Shown here: piece by piece, positions 6,700-24,157 of the stretch
How the letters are laid out: each line of letters begins with the position of its first letter
Numbering within the stretch: position 1 is the stretch's first letter
Source of the DNA: Candidatus Methylomirabilis sp.
GTDB taxonomy: Bacteria; Methylomirabilota; Methylomirabilia; Methylomirabilales; Methylomirabilaceae
Direction: 5' to 3'
DNA length: 31,610 nt
Assembly: GCA_041498975.1 (NCBI GenBank)
Contig: JBGQJI010000010.1
Span: 1 to 31,610 of the forward strand
The notes under the pieces: generated by a model
What the model was told of the DNA's origin: nothing
What the model saw: the letters and a program-made list of their open reading frames with translations, nothing else
Database searches by the model: none
Position numbers and translations under genes: made by a program

Positions 6700-6948
6700 G
6701 TGGCAGTCACGCAACATCGTACTCAACTCTACCTCGACGAGACACACTACCGTTACCTCATCGATCAGGCAGAGCGGGAAGGCATCAGCATTGCCGAGGT
6801 CGTTCGTCGGCTGATCGATGAGAAAATCGGCCTCGCCCATGCTCGCCGAAAGTCCAGGTTCCTCGAGGTTTGCCTCGATGGCTTTAGTACCGGTAGAAAG
6901 GACGGATCCAGCCGTCACGACGATTACATCTACCGAGGCAAGCGGTGA
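6700..6948 (+). CDS. vapB: CopG/ribbon-helix-helix antitoxin (VapB)
   Basis: RTQLYL beta-strand, GISIAEVVRRLID helix, SSRHDDYIY tail; GTGA overlap with the PIN toxin gene. Confidence 0.85.
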   Translation: MAVTQHRTQLYLDETHYRYLIDQAEREGISIAEVVRRLIDEKIGLAHARRKSRFLEVCLDGFSTGRKDGSSRHDDYIYRGKR

Positions 6949-7361
6949 GGCCCGCTGGCGGCCCCATCTTCATTGATACCAGCGCTATCATCGCTGCCAG
7001 AGATGCCCGGGACGCCAATCATGAAGCCGCCATTGAATATCTTCGCGAGGTCAAAGCACAAAGGCGCCGGTTCATTGTCACACACTTTGTCTTCGCCGAG
7101 GTTCACGCTTATTTCTGCCGGGACCACAAGGTGGCAATCAGGCTAGGCGAATTGCTTCTACACGATCCCCTCTTTCAGTACGTGCGAGTCACCGCGGCTG
7201 AGGAACATGAGGCCTGGGGAGTGGCCAAACGCTATGGCGACAAGGCGTTCTCTTTCGTGGACTGCACGAGCTTCGTAGTCATGCAACGGCGAAAGCTACA
7301 AGAGGTCTTTGCCTTCGACGATCACTTTCGCCAGTACGGTCGTTTCGTTGTGCGGCCCTGA
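6945..7361 (+). CDS. vapC: PIN-domain toxin (VapC)
   Basis: IFIDTSA, VFAEV, FSFVDCTSF, FAFDDHF acidic PIN residues. Confidence 0.9.
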   Translation: MRPAGGPIFIDTSAIIAARDARDANHEAAIEYLREVKAQRRRFIVTHFVFAEVHAYFCRDHKVAIRLGELLLHDPLFQYVRVTAAEEHEAWGVAKRYGDKAFSFVDCTSFVVMQRRKLQEVFAFDDHFRQYGRFVVRP

Positions 7362-7420: not shown

Positions 7421-8188
7421 CTACGACAGCCAGCCGATGAAGCTTAGCTGGCTGCCGGTCCTCCCCTCTTTCCGGTAGGAAAAATACTCTTCGACGTGGC
7501 AGGCCGTACAAGGGCCGACCTCGACTATCTGCTGTCGGGGAACGCCGGCTCCGGCGAGCTGCTCGCCGTTAAGCGCCCGCAGATCGAGCCGACCCTTTGC
7601 GCCCTCCTGTCTCCAGGCGCCCTTGAGCGCCTCTGCCCAGTTTACGGTGATCTGTTTCGCGACTTCCATTCCCACTTCGTAGCAGCACGGGCCGATCGAA
7701 GGTCCCATCGCCACATGAAGCGCAGAGGGATCGATCCGGAACTCCTCCGTCATCCGGATGACCGCCCTGGCAGCGATGCCGGCAGCCGTCCCACGCCAGC
7801 CGGCATGCACCGCCCCGACGACTTTTCGATCCGGCTCCACGAAGAGTAAAGGGACGCAGTCGGCCGCCATGATCCCCAGGAAGAGCCTTGGCACATCCGT
7901 CATGAGCCCATCTCCAACGCCGGCCCGCTTCCCGGTTCCGTCGGAGACCCTCAGGATCGTGTCGCCATGGACTTGATCGGCTGTAATGACATTGACCTCG
8001 CTCAACCCCATGGCGACCTTGAGTTCGCACCAGTTCTGCTTCACCGTGTGGACATCGTCGCCATTATTATATGAGACGTTCAGGGAGGCATAGGGGGGCT
8101 GGCTCCTGCCGCCACGCCGGCCGAGGAAGCCATGGACCAAGCCATCGAAACGATCCCACTGTGGGACCTCCAGACGCAGAATACTCAT
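7421..8188 (-). CDS. pgeF: PgeF/YfiH family (peptidoglycan editing factor / purine nucleoside phosphorylase-like)
   Basis: QVHG, GDGLMT, AADCVP, HAGWRG, GPSIGPCCYEVG, CTAC...FSYR. Confidence 0.92.
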   Translation of the reverse strand: MSILRLEVPQWDRFDGLVHGFLGRRGGRSQPPYASLNVSYNNGDDVHTVKQNWCELKVAMGLSEVNVITADQVHGDTILRVSDGTGKRAGVGDGLMTDVPRLFLGIMAADCVPLLFVEPDRKVVGAVHAGWRGTAAGIAARAVIRMTEEFRIDPSALHVAMGPSIGPCCYEVGMEVAKQITVNWAEALKGAWRQEGAKGRLDLRALNGEQLAGAGVPRQQIVEVGPCTACHVEEYFSYRKEGRTGSQLSFIGWLS

Positions 8189-13923: not shown

Positions 13924-16900
13924 ATGCAGGGTGAGCTAGAGAGGCAGATCGCACTCCTGCGGCCGGGCGACCATCTCTGCCTGATTTACGAAGACGCGCC
14001 GGAGCAGATGAAGGCCATCGTGCCCTTTGTAGAGGCAGGTCTCCGCCGCGGTGAGTGTTGCGTCTACATCGCTGACGATGACACCACTGCTGGAATGGCC
14101 ACCGCACTCGCGGCCTCAGGGGTCGACGTCCCTCGTGAGCTTGAGCGGGGCGCGCTGGTTTTTCTCACCGAACGGGACACGTACCAGCGTGGCGGGGCAT
14201 TCGATCCGGAGGCGATGATCGAGCTCCTTCGCGAGACGCTGGAGCGGGCGCTCGCGAAGGGCTCTGCCGGCCTCAGGGTAACCGGCGAGATGAAATGGGC
14301 GCTTGGGCCGGACGTGGGCTGCGAACGGCTGATCGAGTACGAGGCCAGGCTTAACATGTTTCTACCCGGCACTCGAACGCTCGCCATCTGCCGATACCCC
14401 CGACTTCCGTTCCCGCCGACCGTCCTACGGGATGTCCTGCACACCCATCCCGTAGCCATTCTAGGCGACCAGGTGTGCCGGAATCCGTACTATCGATCGC
14501 CAGACTTGGTCATCGCCCAGGCGTCCGAAGCGGAACGGCTGGACTGGATGATCGCCAACATGAAGCGGGCGCACGCGGCAGAGGAAGCATTACGGCAGAG
14601 CGAAGAGCGTTATCGTTACTTGGTGGAAAACGGCCGAGGGCTCATCTGTACCCACAACCTCGCCGGCACGCTGTTGTCGGTTAACCCAGCCGCAGCCGCT
14701 CTGCTGGGCTACCAGCCGGCTGAACTCGTCGGGAGGAACCTTCTCGAGTTTCTCGCGCCGTCTGTTCGGGGCCTTCTCGGCGATTACCTCGATCGTATTC
14801 GGCGGCAGCCGGCCGACAGCGGCCTCCTGCGGGTCGTGACGAAAGTGGGGGAAGAACGAATCTGGATGTACCGGAACGCTCGGATTGAGGAGCCAGGAAA
14901 AGCGCCTTACGTGCTGGGCCATGCGCAGGATATTACTGAGCTCGAGCGAAAGAATATGGGTCGTCTTGAAGCGGCGCTGTCGCTGCTCAGTGCCACGCTG
15001 GAGTCCACCGCCGACGGCATCCTCGTAGTGGATCAGGCGGGCAAGATCGTGAGCTTTAACCGCAAGTTCGCGGACATGTGGCGTATCCCCGAGACCGTCC
15101 TCGCCGCGCACGACGACTCACGGGCGCTGGACCTTGTCCTCGATCAGCTCGAGGATCCGGAAGGATTTCTCAGGAGGGTGCGCCAACTCTACGACCAACC
15201 GGAGCTCGCGAGCTTTGACGTCCTGAGATTCAAGGATGGGAGAATCTTCGAGCGCTATTCGCAGCCGCAGCGAGTCGGCCCCCGATGCGCGGGAAGAGTA
15301 TGGAGCTTCCGTGACGTCACCGAGCGGAAGCAGCTCGAGGACGCGCTGCGACAGAGCGAACAGGAATTGAACGACTTCTTTGAAAATGCTGTGGTGGGTC
15401 TGCACTGGGTGGGGCCGGATGGGTACATTCTTCGCGCGAATCAGGCAGAGCTGAAATTGTTGGGATACACGCGGGAGGAGTACGTCGGTCACCACATTTC
15501 CGAGTTTCATGCCGATCGAAAAGTGGCTGATGATATCCTCGAACGCTTGACGAGGAACGAGACGTTGCGAAACCATGAAGCCCTCCTTCGGCACAAAGAT
15601 GGTTCCATCAAGCATGTCCTCATCGATTCGAATGTGTTCCGGCGGGATGGCAGATTCGTTCACTCGCGCTGTATCACCCGCGATATCACCGAGCGCATGC
15701 AGGTGGAGGCGGCGCTGCGGAAGAGTGAAGAACGGTATCGGACGCTGTACGAAGACAATCCAACCATGTACTTCACGATGAGTCCAGAGGGCAGAATCCT
15801 ATCCGTCAACCAGTTTGGGGCCGCCCAACTGGGGTACACGTGTGAGGAACTGGTCGGGAGATCGGTCCTTGACGTGATTCACAGTGATGACAGGATCGCG
15901 GCCTGGGACCACCTGAAAGCGTGTGTGGAGCGCCCCGGGCAGGTCGGCCACTGGGAATTCCGGAAGATCCGAAAAGACGGGACCGTGGTGTGGGTGAAAG
16001 AGGTGGCTCACACCGTGAAGAGGACTGACGGGAACCCCATTGTCCTCATTGTCTGCGAAGACGTCACGCAGCTCAAGGAGGCGCAGGCGGCACTCTCCCA
16101 GGTGGCGGCCATTGTGGAGTCTTCCGACGATGCGATCATCGGCAAGACACTGGAAGGCCTCATTATCAGTTGGAATTCCGGCGCGGAGAGGATTTTTGGC
16201 TACCCCCTTGAGGAGGTCAAGGGCCGGCATATCTCCATCCTCGCGCCCCCGGACCGCCGGGACGAAGGGATACGGATCCTTGAAAGAATCAAGCGCGGAG
16301 AGCGCGTTGATCATCATGAAACTGTGCGTGTCAGAAGGGATGGCCGTCAAATTCACGTCTCGCTAACAATCTCCCCGATCAAGGATACGGCTGGCAGGAT
16401 TACAGGCGCCTCGGCTATCACTCGAGACATCACCGAACGCAAGCGGGCGGAGGCGACCCGGCAAGCTCTCTACCAGGCAAGTCTCCAGATCCAGGAACCG
16501 CTGGAGCTTGAGAAGCGGCTCAGTCGCCTCCTTCAGACAGCGAAGACGGTGTTGGAGCTGGATCGCGTCAACATCCTGCTCGCCGATCCGGCGGAACAGT
16601 GGCTGCAGGCAGTGGCCGCCCTGGGGAGTGAGGAGCCTCTTGAGAAAATACGGGTCCGGATTGGGCCGGAGGGGGGCGCTATCGCAGAGGCATACCGCAC
16701 CCAGCAGATGATCGCCTGGGATGGCCGGGCGCCGGTTCCTGCGGGGCTGCGGCTGCATTCGCCCTATGACCAGATTGAGGCCCTCCGCTCCCAGGTCTTC
16801 GCGAACGTGCCACTGATGGTTCGGGGTCGGGCAATCGGGGTCCTGGGGGCCGATCGGAAGCACAGCCGGCGGCCGCTCGATGCGGCCACCTTGGAGCTGC

Positions 16901-17673
16901 TACAGCTCTTTGCCGCGCAGGCCGCCCTCGCCATCGAGCAGGCGCGACTGTTCGAGCAGGTACTGGCCGGGCGCGAGCGTTTGCAGGCCCTCTCCCATCG
17001 GTTAGTGTCGGTGCAGGAAGCCGAGCGCCGCCAGCTCGCCCGCGAACTGCATGACGAGATCGGCCAGATACTGACCGGGATCAAACTCACCCTGGAGATG
17101 AGCGCGCGCCTTCCGGCCGATGCCGTCAAAACCACCATTGGCGAAGCACAACTGCTGGTCAATGAGCTTATGGGGCGAGTTCGCGAGCTGGCGCTCGATC
17201 TGCGGCCCGCGATGCTGGATGATCTTGGTCTTCAATCCACGTTGCTGTGGCACTTCGAGCGGTTCACTGGTCAGACGCACGTGCGAGTGGCCTTCTCACA
17301 TTCCAGATTGGAGGAACGCGCGCCGCCGGAGGTCGAAACGGCCGCCTACCGCATCGTACAAGAAGCGCTAACGAATGTCGCCCGCCACGCCGGCGTGACA
17401 GCGGTGACGGTCCGCGCCTGGGCCGACTCCGACCGGCTGGCCGTGCAGATCGAAGATCGAGGCTGCGGCTTCGACCTCCCGGCCGCCCTGGCCACGCACA
17501 CCACCAGCGGCTTGGCCGGGATGCGGGAGCGGGCCACCTTGTTGGGCGGGAGGTTGACGGTGGAGTCGGCCCCAGGTGAAGGAACCCTTGTGACAGCCGA
17601 ATTCCCTCTGGCGCGTCCAAACTTGGAGCGAAGAGGCAGAGATGGCCGCAACGACAATCGTGCTGGCGGATGA
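13924..17673 (+). CDS. Cytoplasmic sensor histidine kinase: MEDS - 5 PAS - GAF - HisKA_3 - HATPase
   Basis: MEDS motifs (GDHLCLIYE, LRVTGEM.WAL, IEYEARLN, DVLHTHP); repeated PAS/PAC ends (DITE); ERRQLARELHDEIGQ H-box, QEALTNVARHA, GLAGMRER. Confidence 0.92.
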   Translation: MQGELERQIALLRPGDHLCLIYEDAPEQMKAIVPFVEAGLRRGECCVYIADDDTTAGMATALAASGVDVPRELERGALVFLTERDTYQRGGAFDPEAMIELLRETLERALAKGSAGLRVTGEMKWALGPDVGCERLIEYEARLNMFLPGTRTLAICRYPRLPFPPTVLRDVLHTHPVAILGDQVCRNPYYRSPDLVIAQASEAERLDWMIANMKRAHAAEEALRQSEERYRYLVENGRGLICTHNLAGTLLSVNPAAAALLGYQPAELVGRNLLEFLAPSVRGLLGDYLDRIRRQPADSGLLRVVTKVGEERIWMYRNARIEEPGKAPYVLGHAQDITELERKNMGRLEAALSLLSATLESTADGILVVDQAGKIVSFNRKFADMWRIPETVLAAHDDSRALDLVLDQLEDPEGFLRRVRQLYDQPELASFDVLRFKDGRIFERYSQPQRVGPRCAGRVWSFRDVTERKQLEDALRQSEQELNDFFENAVVGLHWVGPDGYILRANQAELKLLGYTREEYVGHHISEFHADRKVADDILERLTRNETLRNHEALLRHKDGSIKHVLIDSNVFRRDGRFVHSRCITRDITERMQVEAALRKSEERYRTLYEDNPTMYFTMSPEGRILSVNQFGAAQLGYTCEELVGRSVLDVIHSDDRIAAWDHLKACVERPGQVGHWEFRKIRKDGTVVWVKEVAHTVKRTDGNPIVLIVCEDVTQLKEAQAALSQVAAIVESSDDAIIGKTLEGLIISWNSGAERIFGYPLEEVKGRHISILAPPDRRDEGIRILERIKRGERVDHHETVRVRRDGRQIHVSLTISPIKDTAGRITGASAITRDITERKRAEATRQALYQASLQIQEPLELEKRLSRLLQTAKTVLELDRVNILLADPAEQWLQAVAALGSEEPLEKIRVRIGPEGGAIAEAYRTQQMIAWDGRAPVPAGLRLHSPYDQIEALRSQVFANVPLMVRGRAIGVLGADRKHSRRPLDAATLELLQLFAAQAALAIEQARLFEQVLAGRERLQALSHRLVSVQEAERRQLARELHDEIGQILTGIKLTLEMSARLPADAVKTTIGEAQLLVNELMGRVRELALDLRPAMLDDLGLQSTLLWHFERFTGQTHVRVAFSHSRLEERAPPEVETAAYRIVQEALTNVARHAGVTAVTVRAWADSDRLAVQIEDRGCGFDLPAALATHTTSGLAGMRERATLLGGRLTVESAPGEGTLVTAEFPLARPNLERRGRDGRNDNRAGG

Positions 17674-18298
17674 CCACCAGGTCGTCCGACAGGGTCTGCG
17701 GGCCCTCCTGGAAACCGAGCCGGACTTTCGACTTATCGGGGAGGCGGGCGATGGTCTGGAGGCGGCTGAACTGATCGAACGTCTACAGCCCGACGTGTTG
17801 GTGCTCGACCTGATGATGTCTGGCTTGAGCGGCCTGGAGGTCACGCGGCTGGCGCGCAAGTGCTCACCCCGAACCCATGTCCTGATCCTCTCGATGCACG
17901 CCGATGAAGCCTATGTGCTGGAGGCTCTGAAAAATGGCGCAGCAGGCTACGTTCTTAAGGATTCCAGCGCAGCCGACCTGGTGCAGGCGGTGCGCGAGGT
18001 GACCGCCGGCCGACGTTACCTCAGCCCGCCGCTTTCAGAGCGCGCCATCGAGCAATATGCACAGAAGGCAGAAGCCGCAGCTCGGGATAGCTATGAAACG
18101 CTGACGACACGCGAGCGGGGAGTGTTGCACCTGGCGGCCGAGGGCAAAACGAACCCCGAGATTGCAGGTCGGCTCGGAATCAGCCCCCGCACGGCTGAGA
18201 CGCATCGGGCCAACCTCATGCGCAAGCTGGGGCTGCACACTCAGACCGACCTGGTCCGCTACGCCATCCGGCGGGGAATCCTCCCCCTGAACGACTGA
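17642..18298 (+). CDS. NarL/FixJ (LuxR-type HTH) response regulator
   Basis: LADDH, VLDLMM, GYVLK, LTTRE...ISPRTAETHRANLMRKLGL; overlaps the kinase 3' end. Confidence 0.95.
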   Translation: MAATTIVLADDHQVVRQGLRALLETEPDFRLIGEAGDGLEAAELIERLQPDVLVLDLMMSGLSGLEVTRLARKCSPRTHVLILSMHADEAYVLEALKNGAAGYVLKDSSAADLVQAVREVTAGRRYLSPPLSERAIEQYAQKAEAAARDSYETLTTRERGVLHLAAEGKTNPEIAGRLGISPRTAETHRANLMRKLGLHTQTDLVRYAIRRGILPLND

Positions 18299-18668: not shown

Positions 18669-18938
18669 ATGGTTGCCGTGGGTATCCGGGAGTTAAGAAA
18701 CCGCCTCAGTCAGTATCTCAAGCGAGTGGGAGCCGGGGAACGCGTGGTGGTGACGCACCGAGGTCAGCCGGTCGCCGTCATCTCGCCCCCGCCTATCACT
18801 CCCGCGGACGGGCGAATCGAGGCCATGCTCCGTGACGGTGTGGCGCGGTGGGGAGGAGGCAGACCGCGAGGAGCCATCCGCCCGCCCCGGGTCAAGGGGC
18901 CTTCGGTGGCCCAAGCGGTCATCGAAGATCGACGATGA
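18669..18938 (+). CDS. vapB: Phd/YefM-type antitoxin
   Basis: VGIRELRNRLSQYLKRV..GERVVVTHRGQPVAVI; ATGA overlap with the toxin gene. Confidence 0.9.
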   Translation: MVAVGIRELRNRLSQYLKRVGAGERVVVTHRGQPVAVISPPPITPADGRIEAMLRDGVARWGGGRPRGAIRPPRVKGPSVAQAVIEDRR

Positions 18939-19387
18939 GGCTTTACCTTGATACCAGCGCCCTCGTCAAGCTCTATGTGGACGAAGAGGGATCGCCCCTT
19001 GTCCGAAGCGCGGTCGATCAAGCCAGTCTGATTGCGACTTCGGCGGTCGCCTATGTCGAGGCCCGAGCGGCCTTCGTCAGGCGCCGCCATGAGGGAGGGC
19101 TTCCAGCCAGAGATTACCGAAGGATCATTCGTGATCTCGATGCGGACTGGGCCCGTTACCTGGTAGTGGGTATCACGGACTCGCTCATTCGAGAGGGGGC
19201 CCGTCTCGCGGAGGCTCATCAGCTAAGGGCCTACGATGCGATCCATTTGGGCTGTGCAACAGCCATCCATGGCCGGCTCGCCGAGCCCGTCGTCTTTGCC
19301 TCCTGGGACCTCGTGCTGGAAAAGGCCGCAAAGGATGAAGGGCTTGAGCCATTGCGGTTCCGGAAGCACCCGCCGCGTAATAGCTGA
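18935..19387 (+). CDS. vapC: PIN-domain toxin (VapC)
   Basis: Start moved to ATG 18935: MRLYLDTSALVKLY, YVEA, LRAYDAIHL, FASWD. Confidence 0.9.
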   Translation: MRLYLDTSALVKLYVDEEGSPLVRSAVDQASLIATSAVAYVEARAAFVRRRHEGGLPARDYRRIIRDLDADWARYLVVGITDSLIREGARLAEAHQLRAYDAIHLGCATAIHGRLAEPVVFASWDLVLEKAAKDEGLEPLRFRKHPPRNS

Positions 19388-19522
19388 GGTTATCTCTTAC
19401 CCCCCCCCTGACCCACGGCTCCCCTCCGGCGTTTCCCCTTCCTCCTTTTGACCCCCAAACCGTCCAGTACCCCTTCCCGGCCGGTCCGCCCCGCAAGAAA
19501 TACGGGGTTTCCCTCCTCGAAT

Positions 19523-19567
19523 TCCGTAGGTGTACGGATAGACACGCCCGGCCAAGCCATCTATTCT
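19523..19567 (+). promoter_or_regulatory. Candidate activator site plus promoter
   Basis: Palindrome TCCGTA-N4-TACGGA abutting TAGACA-N17-TATTCT. Confidence 0.45.
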
Positions 19568-19633
19568 CACTCTGCATCTATTTATGCTCCTGGAGTCACT
19601 CTTGTAGCCGAGCGAGGAGGGCCGACAGGAATC

Positions 19634-20107
19634 ATGAACCCCATCTCCGTGCTGCTGGTGGACGACAATTCCACCTTTCTGCAGATCCTTGCACGGTTCT
19701 TGCGAACGCAGTACCAGGACGAGGTCGTCGTCGTCGGTACAGCTGCCGGCGGCAAAGAGGCCCTGAGGACATCACAGGATCTGCAACCGCAAGTGATTCT
19801 GCTCGACCTGGCCATGCCCGATGTGCCGGGCCTGGACGTCATCCCCGTTCTGCGGACCAGGATGCCTGATGTCATCATCATCGCCCTGACCCTCTGGGAC
19901 ACCGACGCCTATCGCGAGGCGGCCCGCGCCGCGGGGGCAGATGCGTTCGTCTCAAAGGCCAGCTTGAGCACCGACCTGCTGCCGGCCATCCGACGCCTGG
20001 TACAGGCTACTCGCCCGCACGGGTCTTGCGGACCAGCGTCCCCTGGCGACACACCCGTGAATCACTTCCCGACCAAGTTGGGCGGCGCAGGATGGGTGGT
20101 CCCGTGA
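19634..20107 (+). CDS. Single-domain response regulator (NarL-type receiver without HTH)
   Basis: SD GAGGAGG upstream; VLLVDDN, LLDLAMP, ALT, AFVSK. Confidence 0.88.
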   Translation: MNPISVLLVDDNSTFLQILARFLRTQYQDEVVVVGTAAGGKEALRTSQDLQPQVILLDLAMPDVPGLDVIPVLRTRMPDVIIIALTLWDTDAYREAARAAGADAFVSKASLSTDLLPAIRRLVQATRPHGSCGPASPGDTPVNHFPTKLGGAGWVVP

Positions 20108-20216
20108 ATACCACGACACGACTGGGGGGCGGGGACCTGAGCCCGGGCCACGGGCTGGGAGGCAGGAGCCAAGCGGCTCCTGCCGTCGCGATGTAAGAGA
20201 CGGAGAGCCGTACTCA

Positions 20217-23200
20217 ATGCTACACCTTCTGCAGAGCGTCATCGGCTCGCAAGGATTCGAGCCGCACGGCTACTGCTTCCTGTGGACGCGACCGCTGTTG
20301 TGGCTCTACGTCATCTCGGATTCGCTGATTACCCTCTCGTACTATTCCATCCCGATCGCCCTCGTCTACTTCGTGCGCAAGAGGCGAGACCTAGCTTTCA
20401 ACTGGATGTTCCTCATGTTCGCGGCGTTCATCATTGCGTGCGGGACGACTCACCTCATGGCGTTGTGGACGATCTGGAATCCCGTGTATTGGCTCGATGG
20501 AGCCGTCAAGGCAATCACGGCAATTGCGTCAGTCATAACAGCGGTGGCGCTCTGGCTGCTCATGCCTAAGGCTCTTGCATTGCCCAGTCCAGCCCAACTG
20601 GAAGCAGCCAATTCGGCGCTTCAAGGGGAGATCATCGAACGGAACCAGGCGCAGGAGGCGTTGCGCAGAGCGCACGAGGAGTTAGAGATACGGGTCCACG
20701 AACGGACCAAGGAGTTGACAAGAATCACCGAAGCATTACAGGCTGAGATCGCCGAGCGCAAGCAAGTGGAGGAGCGACTGGGGCTGCAAGGCGCCGCGCT
20801 TGAAGCCGCCGCGAACGCCATCGTCATGACCGACCGAGAAGGGCAGATAGTTTGGGTCAACCCGGCCTTCACTCGCCTCACCGGCTACACAGCCGAGGAG
20901 GCCTTTGGCCACAACCCTCGCCTCCTCAAATCAGGCAATCATGACCTATCATTCTATGAGAATCTCTGGAACACGATTCTTTCCGGGGAGGTCTGGCACG
21001 GGGAGATCATCAACCGGCGAAAAGATGGGACTCTGTATCACGAGGAGCAGACCATCACCCCCGTTCGCGACGAGCGAGGCGATATTACTCACTTCATCGC
21101 CATCAAACAGGACATCACCGAGCGCAAGCAGAAGGAGAGTGAGCTTCGCAGGACGCATCGAGCGCTTAGGACCCTCAGTGACTGCAATGAGGCACTGGTG
21201 CGCGCGTCCGACGAATCAGACTTGCTGAGGAACATCTGTCAGGTGATTGTGAGGTCCGGCGGATACCATCTGGCTTGGGTGGGCTTCGCGAAGCACGATG
21301 AAGAGAAAACCGTGCGCCCGGTGGCGCACATGGGATACGATAAGGGCTACCTCGAATCGGTGAAAATCACATGGGATGATACTGAACGGGGCCGTGGTCC
21401 CACCGGAACGGCCATCCGGACAGGCAAGCCCTGCGTTGCGAGAAATATCCAGAAGGATCCCGCCTTTGCCCCCTGGCGCGCCGAAGCGATCAAGCGAGGC
21501 TATGCCTCGTCCATTGCCCTTCCCCTGCGGACCAATGGACAGCCGTTCGGAGCGCTGGTGATCCACGCCGAGGAGCCGGATGCGTTCGACTCGGACGAAG
21601 TGGAGCTGCTGGCCGAGATGGCCAGCGACCTCGAGTACGGCATCGCGATGCTTCGCACACGCGCCGAACATGCGCGGGCGGAGGAGGCCCTGCGAGAGAG
21701 CAAGGAGCGCTATCGGGACCTGGTCGAAAATGCAAACGACATCATCTACACCTACGATCTGACGGGCAACTTCACCTCTCTCAACAGGGCCGGCGAAATA
21801 GTCACCGGCTACACCCGGTACGAGGCCCCCGCGATGAATCTGGCCCAGGTGGTCGCCCCGGAATACCTCGACCTCTCCCGCCAGATGCTGTCCCGCAAGC
21901 TCAGGGAAGGCGGGCCGACGACCTACGATCTCGGGATCATCACGAAGGACGGCCGCCGCGTCCTGCTGGAGGTCAGCAACCGGCTGATCTATAAAGAGGG
22001 GAGGCCTGTCGGCGTCCAAGGCATCGCCCGCGACATTACCGACCGAAAGCGAGCGGAACAGGAGATCGAGCGTCTCGCGAAGTTTCCCGCTGAAAATCCA
22101 AGTCCCATCTTACGCATCAATAGCGAAGGCCTGATGCTGTATGCAAATCAGGCAAGCGAGCCGCTCTTGCGAGGGTGGGGGTGGGAGGTTGGGCGCGACG
22201 TACCCCACGCTTGGCGTGACCTGATAACTGAGGCACTCACAAAACAGGAGAAAAGGATCATCGAGGCAGAGTGTGCGGAGCGCGTTTACGAATTCGTTCT
22301 GGCCTCGGTGCCGGATGGCGGCTATGTCAATCTCTATGGAAGGGACATCACCGAGCGGAAGCAGACAGAGGCAACCCGGCGGGCCCTCTACCGGGCGAGC
22401 CTTCATGTCCAGGAACCGCTGACGCTCCAGGAGCGGCTCGACCGGCTTCTGCAGACCGCCCGAGATGTGATAGGGCTTGATCGGCTCAGCATCTTCCTCG
22501 CAGACCCGACAAAGCAGTGGCTGCAAGTGGTGGCCAGTACCAAGCCCGAGGAGGTTGCGCAGGCAGTGTCCATTCCGATCGGGCCCGCCGGTGGCGGCTT
22601 GGCCCAGGCCTACCGCACCCAGCAGATGGTCGTCTGGGATGGCCGCGGGCCGGTGCCCGAGCCGCTCCGCCTGAAGCCCCCCTATGACCAGATCAAGAGC
22701 CTGCGGTCTCGCATCTTCGCCATCTTGCCCCTGGTGGCCCAAGGCCGGACGATTGGCGTGCTGGGATCGCACCAGGCACAGACCCGAAAGCCCTTCGAAC
22801 CCGCCACGCTGGAGCTCCTCCAGCTCTTCGCCGCCCAAGCCGCCCTCGCGATCGAGCAGGCGCGGCTCTATGAGGCGGAGCGCTTGGCCGCCATTCAACT
22901 CGAAGCCACGGTTGAAGCCCGGACCCGAGAGCTCCAGGAGGCCACTCGCCAGGCCGAGGAAGCCTCCCGCCACAAGTCGGAGTTCCTGGCCAACATGTCC
23001 CATGAGCTCCGGACCCCGCTCAACTCGATCCTTGGCTTCTCGGAGCTCTTACAGCAGCACGCGTATGGCCCCCTTAGCGCCAAGCAGGCCCGCTACGTGG
23101 ACCACATCCATCAGAGCGGCGAGCACCTCCTGGCGCTGATCAACGACCTCCTCGACCTCTCGAAGGTGGAGGCGGGGAAGATCGAACTGGAGCCGGAGCC

Positions 23201-23732
23201 CTTCAACCTGCCAGCGGCCTTAGCAGCCGCAGCGACCAAGATCCGCCCCCAGGCCAAGGCGAAGGGGCTGCGGCTCTCGCTTCAGGCGGACGACGCTCCT
23301 TCGACCCTCACCGCAGATCCGCTCCGGTTCAAGCAGATCCTCTACAATCTCCTCTCCAATGCGGTGAAATTCACCCCCGATGGAGGGCGGATTATGGTCA
23401 CCGCCAGGCGCGTGCGGAGTGCGGAGTGCGGAGTGCGGAGTGAGACAGATAGCACCTCGCACCTTGCACCTTGCACCTCGGACGCCGCTGATTTCGTTGA
23501 AATCGGCGTGTCCGACACGGGGATCGGGATTTCGGGCGAGGACTTGCCCAAGCTCTTCCAGGCGTTCACCCAACTGGAGTCCCCGTTCGTAAAGCGACAC
23601 CAGGGGACGGGGCTCGGCCTTGCCCTGACGAAGCAGCTCGTCGAACTGCACGGAGGGACGATCTGGGCCGAGTCCCAGGGCGAGGGCCTGGGAAGCGCCT
23701 TCACGATCCGCCTCCCCTTGGCCCCAGGCTAG
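20217..23732 (+). CDS. Membrane sensor histidine kinase: ETR1-like ethylene-binding domain - PAS - GAF - PAS - PAS - GAF - HisKA - HATPase
   Basis: Three TM helices with ISDSLITLSYYSIP and FIIACGTTH; H-box FLANMSHELRTPLN; NLLSNAVKF, DTGIG, GTGLGL. Confidence 0.92.
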   Translation: MLHLLQSVIGSQGFEPHGYCFLWTRPLLWLYVISDSLITLSYYSIPIALVYFVRKRRDLAFNWMFLMFAAFIIACGTTHLMALWTIWNPVYWLDGAVKAITAIASVITAVALWLLMPKALALPSPAQLEAANSALQGEIIERNQAQEALRRAHEELEIRVHERTKELTRITEALQAEIAERKQVEERLGLQGAALEAAANAIVMTDREGQIVWVNPAFTRLTGYTAEEAFGHNPRLLKSGNHDLSFYENLWNTILSGEVWHGEIINRRKDGTLYHEEQTITPVRDERGDITHFIAIKQDITERKQKESELRRTHRALRTLSDCNEALVRASDESDLLRNICQVIVRSGGYHLAWVGFAKHDEEKTVRPVAHMGYDKGYLESVKITWDDTERGRGPTGTAIRTGKPCVARNIQKDPAFAPWRAEAIKRGYASSIALPLRTNGQPFGALVIHAEEPDAFDSDEVELLAEMASDLEYGIAMLRTRAEHARAEEALRESKERYRDLVENANDIIYTYDLTGNFTSLNRAGEIVTGYTRYEAPAMNLAQVVAPEYLDLSRQMLSRKLREGGPTTYDLGIITKDGRRVLLEVSNRLIYKEGRPVGVQGIARDITDRKRAEQEIERLAKFPAENPSPILRINSEGLMLYANQASEPLLRGWGWEVGRDVPHAWRDLITEALTKQEKRIIEAECAERVYEFVLASVPDGGYVNLYGRDITERKQTEATRRALYRASLHVQEPLTLQERLDRLLQTARDVIGLDRLSIFLADPTKQWLQVVASTKPEEVAQAVSIPIGPAGGGLAQAYRTQQMVVWDGRGPVPEPLRLKPPYDQIKSLRSRIFAILPLVAQGRTIGVLGSHQAQTRKPFEPATLELLQLFAAQAALAIEQARLYEAERLAAIQLEATVEARTRELQEATRQAEEASRHKSEFLANMSHELRTPLNSILGFSELLQQHAYGPLSAKQARYVDHIHQSGEHLLALINDLLDLSKVEAGKIELEPEPFNLPAALAAAATKIRPQAKAKGLRLSLQADDAPSTLTADPLRFKQILYNLLSNAVKFTPDGGRIMVTARRVRSAECGVRSETDSTSHLAPCTSDAADFVEIGVSDTGIGISGEDLPKLFQAFTQLESPFVKRHQGTGLGLALTKQLVELHGGTIWAESQGEGLGSAFTIRLPLAPG
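23412..23479. repeat. Heptamer inverted-repeat hairpin inserted in-frame in the kinase ATPase domain
   Basis: (GTGCGGA)x4, spacer, (GCACCTY)x4; translated as VRSAECGVRSETDSTSHLAPCTS. Confidence 0.8.
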
Positions 23733-23752: not shown

Positions 23753-24157
23753 ATGGCGCGCGGCACGGTCTTGGTGGTGGAGGATCACCCGGTGAACCGA
23801 GAGCTGGTCGTGGATGTCCTCGAGGCGGCGGGGTACACGATTCTTCAGGCGGAAGATGGCAGCGGCCTGCTGGAGCGGGTGAAGGCCACGCGACCCGATC
23901 TCATCATCCTGGACCTCCAACTCCCTGGTGTGGACGGCTTCACGCTGGCCCGGTTGCTCACGGCCGAGCCCGTGACCCAAGGCATCCCGATCCTCGCGAT
24001 CAGCGCGTATGCTGCGCCCCAGGAACAGGCCCAGGCGAAAACAGCCGGCTGCGCAGCCTTCCTGGCCAAGCCCCTTGACACCCGAGGACTTGTCAAGACC
24101 GTCGCCCGTCTCGCCGGGCTGCAAGGGCGGGTGGCGCTGAGGCCGGTATCCAGATGA
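23753..24157 (+). CDS. Single-domain response regulator (DivK/CheY-like)
   Basis: VLVVEDH, IILDLQLP, ISA, FLAKP. Confidence 0.92.
   Translation: MARGTVLVVEDHPVNRELVVDVLEAAGYTILQAEDGSGLLERVKATRPDLIILDLQLPGVDGFTLARLLTAEPVTQGIPILAISAYAAPQEQAQAKTAGCAAFLAKPLDTRGLVKTVARLAGLQGRVALRPVSR

Follow-up and report, generated by a model that had tools for sequence, protein, structure and literature searches.

A predicted ETR1-type ethylene-binding domain on a multi-sensor histidine kinase of Candidatus Methylomirabilis

A 31,610-nucleotide stretch of DNA from Candidatus Methylomirabilis sp. (assembly GCA_041498975.1, contig JBGQJI010000010.1, positions 1 to 31,610 of the forward strand; the window) encodes a multi-sensor histidine kinase whose membrane part is supported, at the level of sequence, as a true and complete counterpart of the domain with which the plant receptor ETR1 binds ethylene through copper. 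The gene is the open reading frame (ORF) 20217-23732 (+ strand, 3516 nucleotides), and the segment 20256-20591, which an earlier sequence-only reading of this DNA had flagged as an ETR1-type domain, corresponds to its codons 14-125. By alignment, the seven residues that ETR1 requires to bind ethylene are all present, and the kinase is predicted to bind Cu(I) and ethylene. We consider it probable that the product is a dimeric, membrane-anchored kinase that senses ethylene in a Cu(I)-dependent manner through the ETR1-type domain in its first ~125 residues, integrates further inputs through PAS and GAF modules, and signals by phosphotransfer to response regulators. The gene and the features of its membrane part are as follows.

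20217..23732, + strand: multi-sensor histidine kinase, 1171 amino acids (aa), from the ORF and Pfam/NCBIfam profile matches
20256..20285, + strand: motif F14-x-P-H17-G-x-C20-x-L-W23, outside the Pfam model and probably periplasmic
20289..20381, + strand: predicted membrane helix 1, residues 25-55 (AlphaFold2), carrying D35, Y42, I45 and P46
20400..20477, + strand: predicted membrane helix 2, residues 62-87 (AlphaFold2, with hydropathy at 66-78), with I72 and with C75 and H79 as predicted Cu(I) ligands
20487..20579, + strand: predicted membrane helix 3, residues 91-121 (AlphaFold2), carrying K98, the predicted partner of D35

The membrane domain and its binding residues

A Pfam search of the kinase matched residues 27-122 to positions 2-97 of the 97-position profile ETR1_N (PF25487, 'Ethylene receptor 1-like, N-terminal domain'; E = 4.6e-41; 139.4 bits against a cut-off of 27). 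This match is far beyond chance. A six-frame search of the genome (2.68 Mb, 84.9% complete) scored it at 145.2 bits and revealed no other ETR1_N match. Direct counting located D35, Y42, I45, P46, I72, C75, H79 and K98, as well as H17, G18, C20, L22 and W23 of the N-terminal PHGxC.LW motif described in the sequence-only reading. Wang and colleagues are said to have found in 2006 that Y32 of ETR1, the counterpart of Y42, is needed for ethylene binding. C20 and C75 were the only cysteines in residues 1-135. Hydropathy analysis revealed three hydrophobic stretches in the same region, centered near residues 41, 66-78 and 101-115, and none elsewhere in the protein. An AlphaFold2 model (52-sequence alignment, mean pLDDT 81.5) contained helices at residues 25-55, 62-87 and 91-121, followed by a further helix from residue 125. 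In the model D35 falls within the first helix, C75 and H79 within the second and K98 within the third, so that the three transmembrane helices and the location of the Cys/His pair in the second of them agree with what had been proposed from the sequence. The loop at residues 54-58 is basic (RKRRD); under the positive-inside rule, and given a cytoplasmic kinase, this suggests that the N-terminus lies outside the cell and that the 54-58 loop and the C-terminus are cytoplasmic. Searching the PDB by sequence yielded no match to the domain at E values up to 1.

The gene for the receptor AzoEtr1 of Azospirillum brasilense Sp7 was located by tblastn of plasmid records (L089:3001-4578, 525 aa), and the recovered ORF matches the length stated for that protein (PMC11819568). 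Its domain aligned with that of the kinase without gaps and with identical numbering (79 of 139 residues identical, 57%), and both proteins carry D35, Y42, I45, P46, I72, C75, H79, K98 and the N-terminal PHGxC. AzoEtr1 is described as having all seven binding residues, with its C75, D35, H79 and K98 aligned to C65, D25, H69 and K91 of ETR1 (PMC11819568). Because the numbering is identical, these published equivalences give the kinase a constant +10 offset from ETR1 for the seven residues, as the sequence-only reading had stated. They also equate K98 with ETR1 K91, which that reading had guessed; the loop between helices 2 and 3 is three residues shorter than in ETR1, so this lysine is offset by +7 rather than +10. 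For ETR1 itself, I35, P36, I62, C65 and H69 are reported to be essential for binding (PMC6586836), and D25 and C65 to be needed for it (PMC10266040, PMC11819568). The fragment AzoEtr1(1-130) showed saturable binding of 14C-ethylene, and the D35A and C75A mutants of AzoEtr1 failed to complement (PMC11819568). As the alignment is ungapped, these published constructs and mutants (1-130, D35A, C75A) transfer directly to the kinase. Taken together, the profile match, the three helices, the Cys/His pair, the seven residues and the Asp-Lys pair support assignment to the ETR1 type by sequence comparison.

The binding residues were conserved in 117-120 of 120 aligned relatives (query included) and in 251-256 of 256 pooled relatives, and 40 of the 141 columns of the domain alignment were invariant across phyla. 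These figures bear on a reading in which the membrane domain is a mere anchor or dimerization module and the true inputs enter through the cytoplasmic PAS and GAF modules. Such a reading would fit a protein with five or six cytoplasmic sensor modules, which are gained and lost among close relatives while the membrane domain stays. However, an anchor would not keep so many invariant columns across phyla, nor the exact ligand-binding set, and drifting copies of the domain do lose binding residues. We regard a pure anchor as most unlikely and favor a membrane domain that senses ethylene.

The N-terminal motif showed a similar degree of conservation, with H17 and C20 kept in 256 of 256 nearest relatives and in AzoEtr1. 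Among ten further ETR1_N copies from the same phylum, six have Q, D or A at position 75 instead of the helix-2 Cys, and neither H17 nor C20 is present in them, while the four that retain the Cys keep both. The 81 relatives of one Cys-less copy divided in the same way: 73 had neither C75 nor an N-terminal segment, and 8 had C75, H17 and C20. The absence of PHGxC wherever the helix-2 Cys is absent is suggestive, the Cys-less copies falling into only about two clades; in the sample from the phylum of a relative whose record is titled Actinomycetota, only high-scoring matches were listed, with no divergent copies for the motif comparison. Cyanobacterial receptors have a single N-terminal Cys for which a dimer disulfide is described as possible (PMC6682694). 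The PHGxC motif probably forms an inter-subunit disulfide or helps to load copper; motif strings of this type were not found in the literature text searched.

Among the Cys-less copies (L094-L099, L104:251-2593 on the - strand, P0258-P0330), one group is a Rokubacteria-type clade of ETR1_N kinases in which Asp or Gln replaces the copper-binding Cys at position 75, Y42 is exchanged for Cys and P46 for Ala, and the N-terminal segment is missing. D35, H79 and mostly K98 are kept in this clade, whose metal site or ligand may be altered. In a second, small Cys-less clade (L098, L099), position 75 is Ala.

The joint presence or absence of H17/C20 and the helix-2 Cys would also be expected if the domain reported copper supply, the occupancy of C75/H79, fed via periplasmic H17/C20, switching the kinase, and copper is central to methanotroph physiology. 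In characterized members, however, copper is described as a fixed cofactor (PMC10266040, PMC11819568), and Y42, I45, P46 and I72, which are specific to ethylene and not to copper, are conserved as well. Copper sensing is accordingly very unlikely in our judgment, and we retain ethylene as the probable signal.

Gene support, cytoplasmic modules and neighboring genes

The kinase ATG has GGAGAG 9-14 nucleotides in front of it and lies where homologues also begin (96 of 120 aligned rows have M in column 1). Base composition was even (0.57-0.65 GC), with no sign of a foreign island in it. A promoter and terminator scan was no richer than shuffled sequence (2 observed versus 1.2 shuffled, and 4 versus 4.8, respectively), and therefore no operon claim is based on the scan. 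Sediment metagenomes contain the stretch (at least half of its sampled words in 15 runs); no RNA datasets were among the runs listed as containing it.

The extended sensor part of the 1171-aa kinase is not an assembly chimera, since single contigs of four runs bridge the sensor region (19400-22996, 19400-22171, 21100-22708 and 19400-22634), and the contigs of these runs, which may stem from one campaign, show the same domain order. The contigs break off at conserved kinase motifs, in two regions of high depth (22967-23024 and 23412-23441), so that the kinase core is joined to the sensors only through short overlaps and in the assembly of the window itself. At 20849-20974, eight single-base differences from the window were common to contigs of all four runs, which suggests that the common strain sampled there is slightly different from the assembled window across the linker and the start of PAS 1.

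Downstream of the ethylene-binding domain the order is coiled-coil linker, PAS, GAF, PAS, weak PAS-like segment, GAF, HisKA and HATPase, and Pfam and NCBIfam searches found no receiver domain within the 1171 aa. These modules are located as follows.

20589..20786, + strand: helical linker before PAS 1, residues 125-190 (AlphaFold2 helix 125-140, the end of the modeled part)
20793..21116, + strand: PAS 1, residues 193-300 (Pfam PAS), of the MmoS/NifL flavin-binding class by similarity
21207..21632, + strand: GAF 1, residues 331-472 (Pfam GAF_2), within an insert of ~385 aa
21693..22067, + strand: PAS 2, residues 493-617 (best stretch from NCBIfam TIGR00229; Pfam PAS in two stretches)
22197..22370, + strand: possible degenerate PAS, residues 661-718 (weak; PAS_7 at 20.3 bits, below the cut-off of 27)
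22425..22853, + strand: GAF 2, residues 737-879 (Pfam GAF, E = 3.3e-33)
22974..23723, + strand: kinase core, HisKA at residues 920-987 and HATPase_c at 1034-1169 (Pfam, E = 9.9e-24 and 2e-25)

The linker has a heptad-like, charged sequence and is therefore probably a coiled coil. For PAS 1, the best relatives of solved structure were 3ewk_A (E = 1.9e-39), 9qq6_A (1.3e-23) and 2gj3_A (1.4e-20); 3EWK corresponds to the PAS of Methylococcus MmoS and 2GJ3 to that of NifL, and both bind FAD (PMC9668731). When the four flavin-pocket residues described for MmoS (PMC9668731) were mapped on PAS 1, T and N were kept, R was replaced by K and H by P, and flavin binding by PAS 1 is likely. On this reading a redox input would be joined to an ethylene-type input. 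GAF 2 had 3oov_A as its best solved relative (E = 1.4e-20), while the solved relatives of GAF 1 were weak (E = 8e-4 or worse). The catalytic boxes are intact, comprising the H-box with the phospho-acceptor H929, the N-box at 1045, G1 at 1100, the F-box at 1114 and G2 at 1130.

The nearest proteins are ~740-aa kinases of NC10/Methylomirabilota (P0002, P0005 and P0014), all with ETR1_N, and the titles of the nearest records name Candidatus Methylomirabilis, Methylomirabilota or candidate division NC10. These three kinases are 74-77% identical to the window's kinase over residues 1-308/323 and 64-66% identical over 700/709-1170; between the matching blocks the latter has ~385 extra residues (~324-708) comprising GAF, PAS and PAS-like modules. 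In contrast, the 942-aa hybrid kinases of the same genus (P0006 and P0010), also with ETR1_N, have three PAS domains, a fused receiver and other neighborhoods.

Two single-domain response regulators flank the kinase gene.

19634..20107, + strand: upstream single-domain response regulator, 157 aa if it starts at MNPIS (Pfam Response_reg, E = 1.4e-21)
23753..24157, + strand: downstream single-domain response regulator, 134 aa (Pfam Response_reg, E = 1.9e-26)

The mechanical ORF of the upstream regulator begins at a TTG at 19448, and a gap of 109 nucleotides separates the gene from the kinase; the downstream regulator starts 20 nucleotides past the kinase stop. From the sequences, the receiver Asp is probably D58 in the upstream and D54 in the downstream protein. 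One other genome of the genus (L003) keeps the order LuxR regulator, receiver, ethylene-type kinase; its kinase has another set of middle domains. L009, possibly the same contig, shows this gene order too. The corresponding position in L009/L003 is occupied by a homologue of the upstream regulator (53.6% identity), and among the closest relatives those in L009 and L012-L014 have a receiver-only gene immediately upstream (Pfam). Kinases of 817 to 942 aa with the domain are encoded in three further genomes of the genus, in unrelated neighborhoods; the one 942-aa protein searched with Pfam has a fused receiver. In Binatia-type relatives a 118-aa receiver lies directly upstream of a 520-aa AzoEtr1-like kinase.

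Several further genes lie upstream in the window. The ethylene-type kinase unit is preceded, at a distance of about 2 kb, by 13924-18298, which encodes a 1249-aa kinase (MEDS, five PAS, GAF, HisKA_3 and HATPase) whose gene is overlapped by that of a LuxR-type response regulator. This protein carries the only MEDS domain in its own genome. A MEDS regulator is reported in the epoxyethane cluster of Methylohalobius (PMC11507031). Five other genomes of the genus that have an ethylene-type kinase gave no match to MEDS, and a conserved pairing of MEDS and ethylene-type kinases was rejected on that ground. Between the LuxR regulator and the upstream receiver lie a Phd/YefM antitoxin (18669-18938) and a PIN toxin (18669-19387 for the two together), the toxin probably starting at 18935 and overlapping the antitoxin stop. 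The pair looks like an insertion, because it is missing at the same place in L003 and L009. A second PIN gene lies at 6945-7361, and a Cu-oxidase_4 gene (laccase-like, YfiH family) at 7421-8188 (- strand), 12 kb upstream.

The kinase joins a large curated family with thousands of bacterial members, a placement that is sound and not surprising. At E <= 0.001, 1710 proteins of 644-2050 aa matched among 2072 candidates. Matching representatives of 50%-identity clusters numbered 8855 at E <= 0.001, 6732 at 1e-10 and 2438 at 1e-30. Matches over the cut-off occurred in 7 of 41 related genomes and in 15 of the 201 genomes sampled from the phylum; at E <= 0.001, 4 of the 61 genera in that sample had a match. 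In the phylum of the Actinomycetota-titled relative (L047), 116 of 401 sampled genomes were over the cut-off, many with 7-9 matches and up to 11 per genome, and the genome behind L047 itself had 11 ETR1_N matches. Predicted ethylene-binding domains with diverse outputs are described for many bacteria (PMC11819568 and reviews), and surveys cited by the receptor papers already catalog such kinases. Judged by titles and abstract openings, no literature connecting an ethylene receptor with NC10 or with methanotrophs was found.

Proposed mechanism, ligand and host

In ETR1, Asp25-Lys91 coupling, one copper per monomer and Cys65/His69 as ligands have been described (PMC10266040). By analogy, C75 and H79 of the kinase would hold one Cu(I) per monomer, with D35 orienting H79, and the copper would bind ethylene. 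The resulting change would be relayed through contact between D35 and K98 to helix 3 and from there along the helical linker; the cytoplasmic array (flavin-type PAS, two GAFs and further PAS domains) may add redox or metabolite inputs. The net signal would set autophosphorylation of H929 and transfer to D54 of the downstream regulator, to D58 of the upstream regulator, or to both; the regulators have no output domain and would act through protein contacts.

A number of observations weigh against this account. No solved structure of the domain was recovered (0 PDB matches in the search above), and the ETR1 offset was derived transitively via the AzoEtr1 alignment. The gene is patchy in the genus, being present in 5 of 19 other genomes. 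The pairing of the kinase with the two regulators is predicted from adjacency only, and since neighbors differ between genomes the gene context is silent on output. By tblastn, a homologue of the upstream regulator preceded the kinase at 1 of 74 loci with upstream room, at E values of both 1e-5 and 0.01; this search was underpowered, missing the L012-L014 receiver genes confirmed by Pfam. Finally, pmoA and pmoB were not found in the kinase's own 84.9%-complete genome. At that completeness non-detection does not show absence, and pmoA was found in 5 of 5 near-complete genomes of the same genus searched; this member has lost the pmo operon, or else the assembly lacks it. ComA (coenzyme M) was likewise not found in this incomplete genome.

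The identity of the natural ligand has to be weighed separately, as the same Cu(I) site could sense another small pi-acceptor (a short alkene, acetylene, CO or NO), with ethylene being only a laboratory ligand. The host lineage is not plant-associated, the stretch comes up in sediment metagenomes, and the domain is spread over many phyla that are not plant-associated, all of which would suit another gas. Propylene, CO and acetylene elicit weak responses from plant receptors, and NO is an intermediate of Methylomirabilis metabolism. Against this, all residues that give ETR1 and AzoEtr1 their ethylene binding are kept, cyanobacterial receptors of the same branch are reported to respond to ethylene at very low levels (PMC6682694), and ethylene is present at ppmv levels in flooded soils and sediments (PMC11507031). 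We consider a different natural ligand unlikely, and ethylene the probable one.

Ethylene is relevant to methanotrophs in that methane monooxygenase co-oxidizes it to epoxyethane; ethylene is described as toxic to these organisms and inhibits soil methane oxidation at 3-50 ppmv (PMC11507031). A further proposal, possible but doubtful in our view, is that the kinase serves as an ethylene alarm for a nitrite-dependent methanotroph and that H17-x-x-C20 may be a copper entry or hand-off site of ethylene-binding domains in bacteria. Because methane monooxygenase cannot avoid converting ethylene to toxic epoxyethane, sensing in the ppb-ppm range in sediment would permit adjustment before damage occurs, and a role of H17-x-x-C20 in copper entry would explain its loss exactly where the helix-2 Cys is missing. 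The bacterial systems tested in the receptor literature, as far as the sources consulted describe it, are Synechocystis, Geitlerinema and Azospirillum, all phototrophs or plant associates. A fully canonical receptor in this methane-oxidizing sediment lineage would broaden ethylene sensing to an organism that ethylene poisons (PMC11507031) and to which it is no host signal. The window also provides a concrete gene for tests in enrichment cultures, and the PHGxC pattern suggests a copper-loading step that can be tested.

Comparison with characterized receptors

The sequence-only reading had noted that few bacterial homologues are characterized, and the sources consulted accord with this, describing SynEtr1 (Slr1212), two Geitlerinema proteins (GeiEtr1/2) and AzoEtr1. 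The plant receptors ETR1 and ERS1, together with SynEtr1 and GeiEtr1/2, belong to the same Pfam family as the kinase and share with it the Cys/His copper pair, the Asp-Lys pair, the seven residues, and GAF and kinase modules after the membrane domain. Plant receptors differ in having two N-terminal cysteines and a shorter N-terminus, whereas the bacterial proteins have one such cysteine (PMC6682694). SynEtr1 has a bilin photoreceptor GAF (PMC6682694), while searches against solved structures revealed no bilin-GAF likeness in the kinase. MmoS of Methylococcus capsulatus, the relative of PAS 1, has no membrane ethylene-binding domain, in contrast to the kinase described here.

The closest characterized relative is AzoEtr1, which was shown to bind ethylene. 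Both proteins have a PAS after the membrane domain and a HisKA/HATPase kinase, and in both a receiver-only regulator of ~135 aa lies immediately downstream (135 aa and output-less in the case of AzoEtr1; PMC11819568), the two regulators being 33% identical. Outside the binding domain, however, the likeness to AzoEtr1 is generic. The kinase is larger (1171 aa) and has in addition a flavin-type PAS, two GAFs, further PAS modules and a second receiver-only gene upstream. The hosts also differ: AzoEtr1 comes from a root colonizer, while the kinase of the window comes from a sediment bacterium of the NC10 type.

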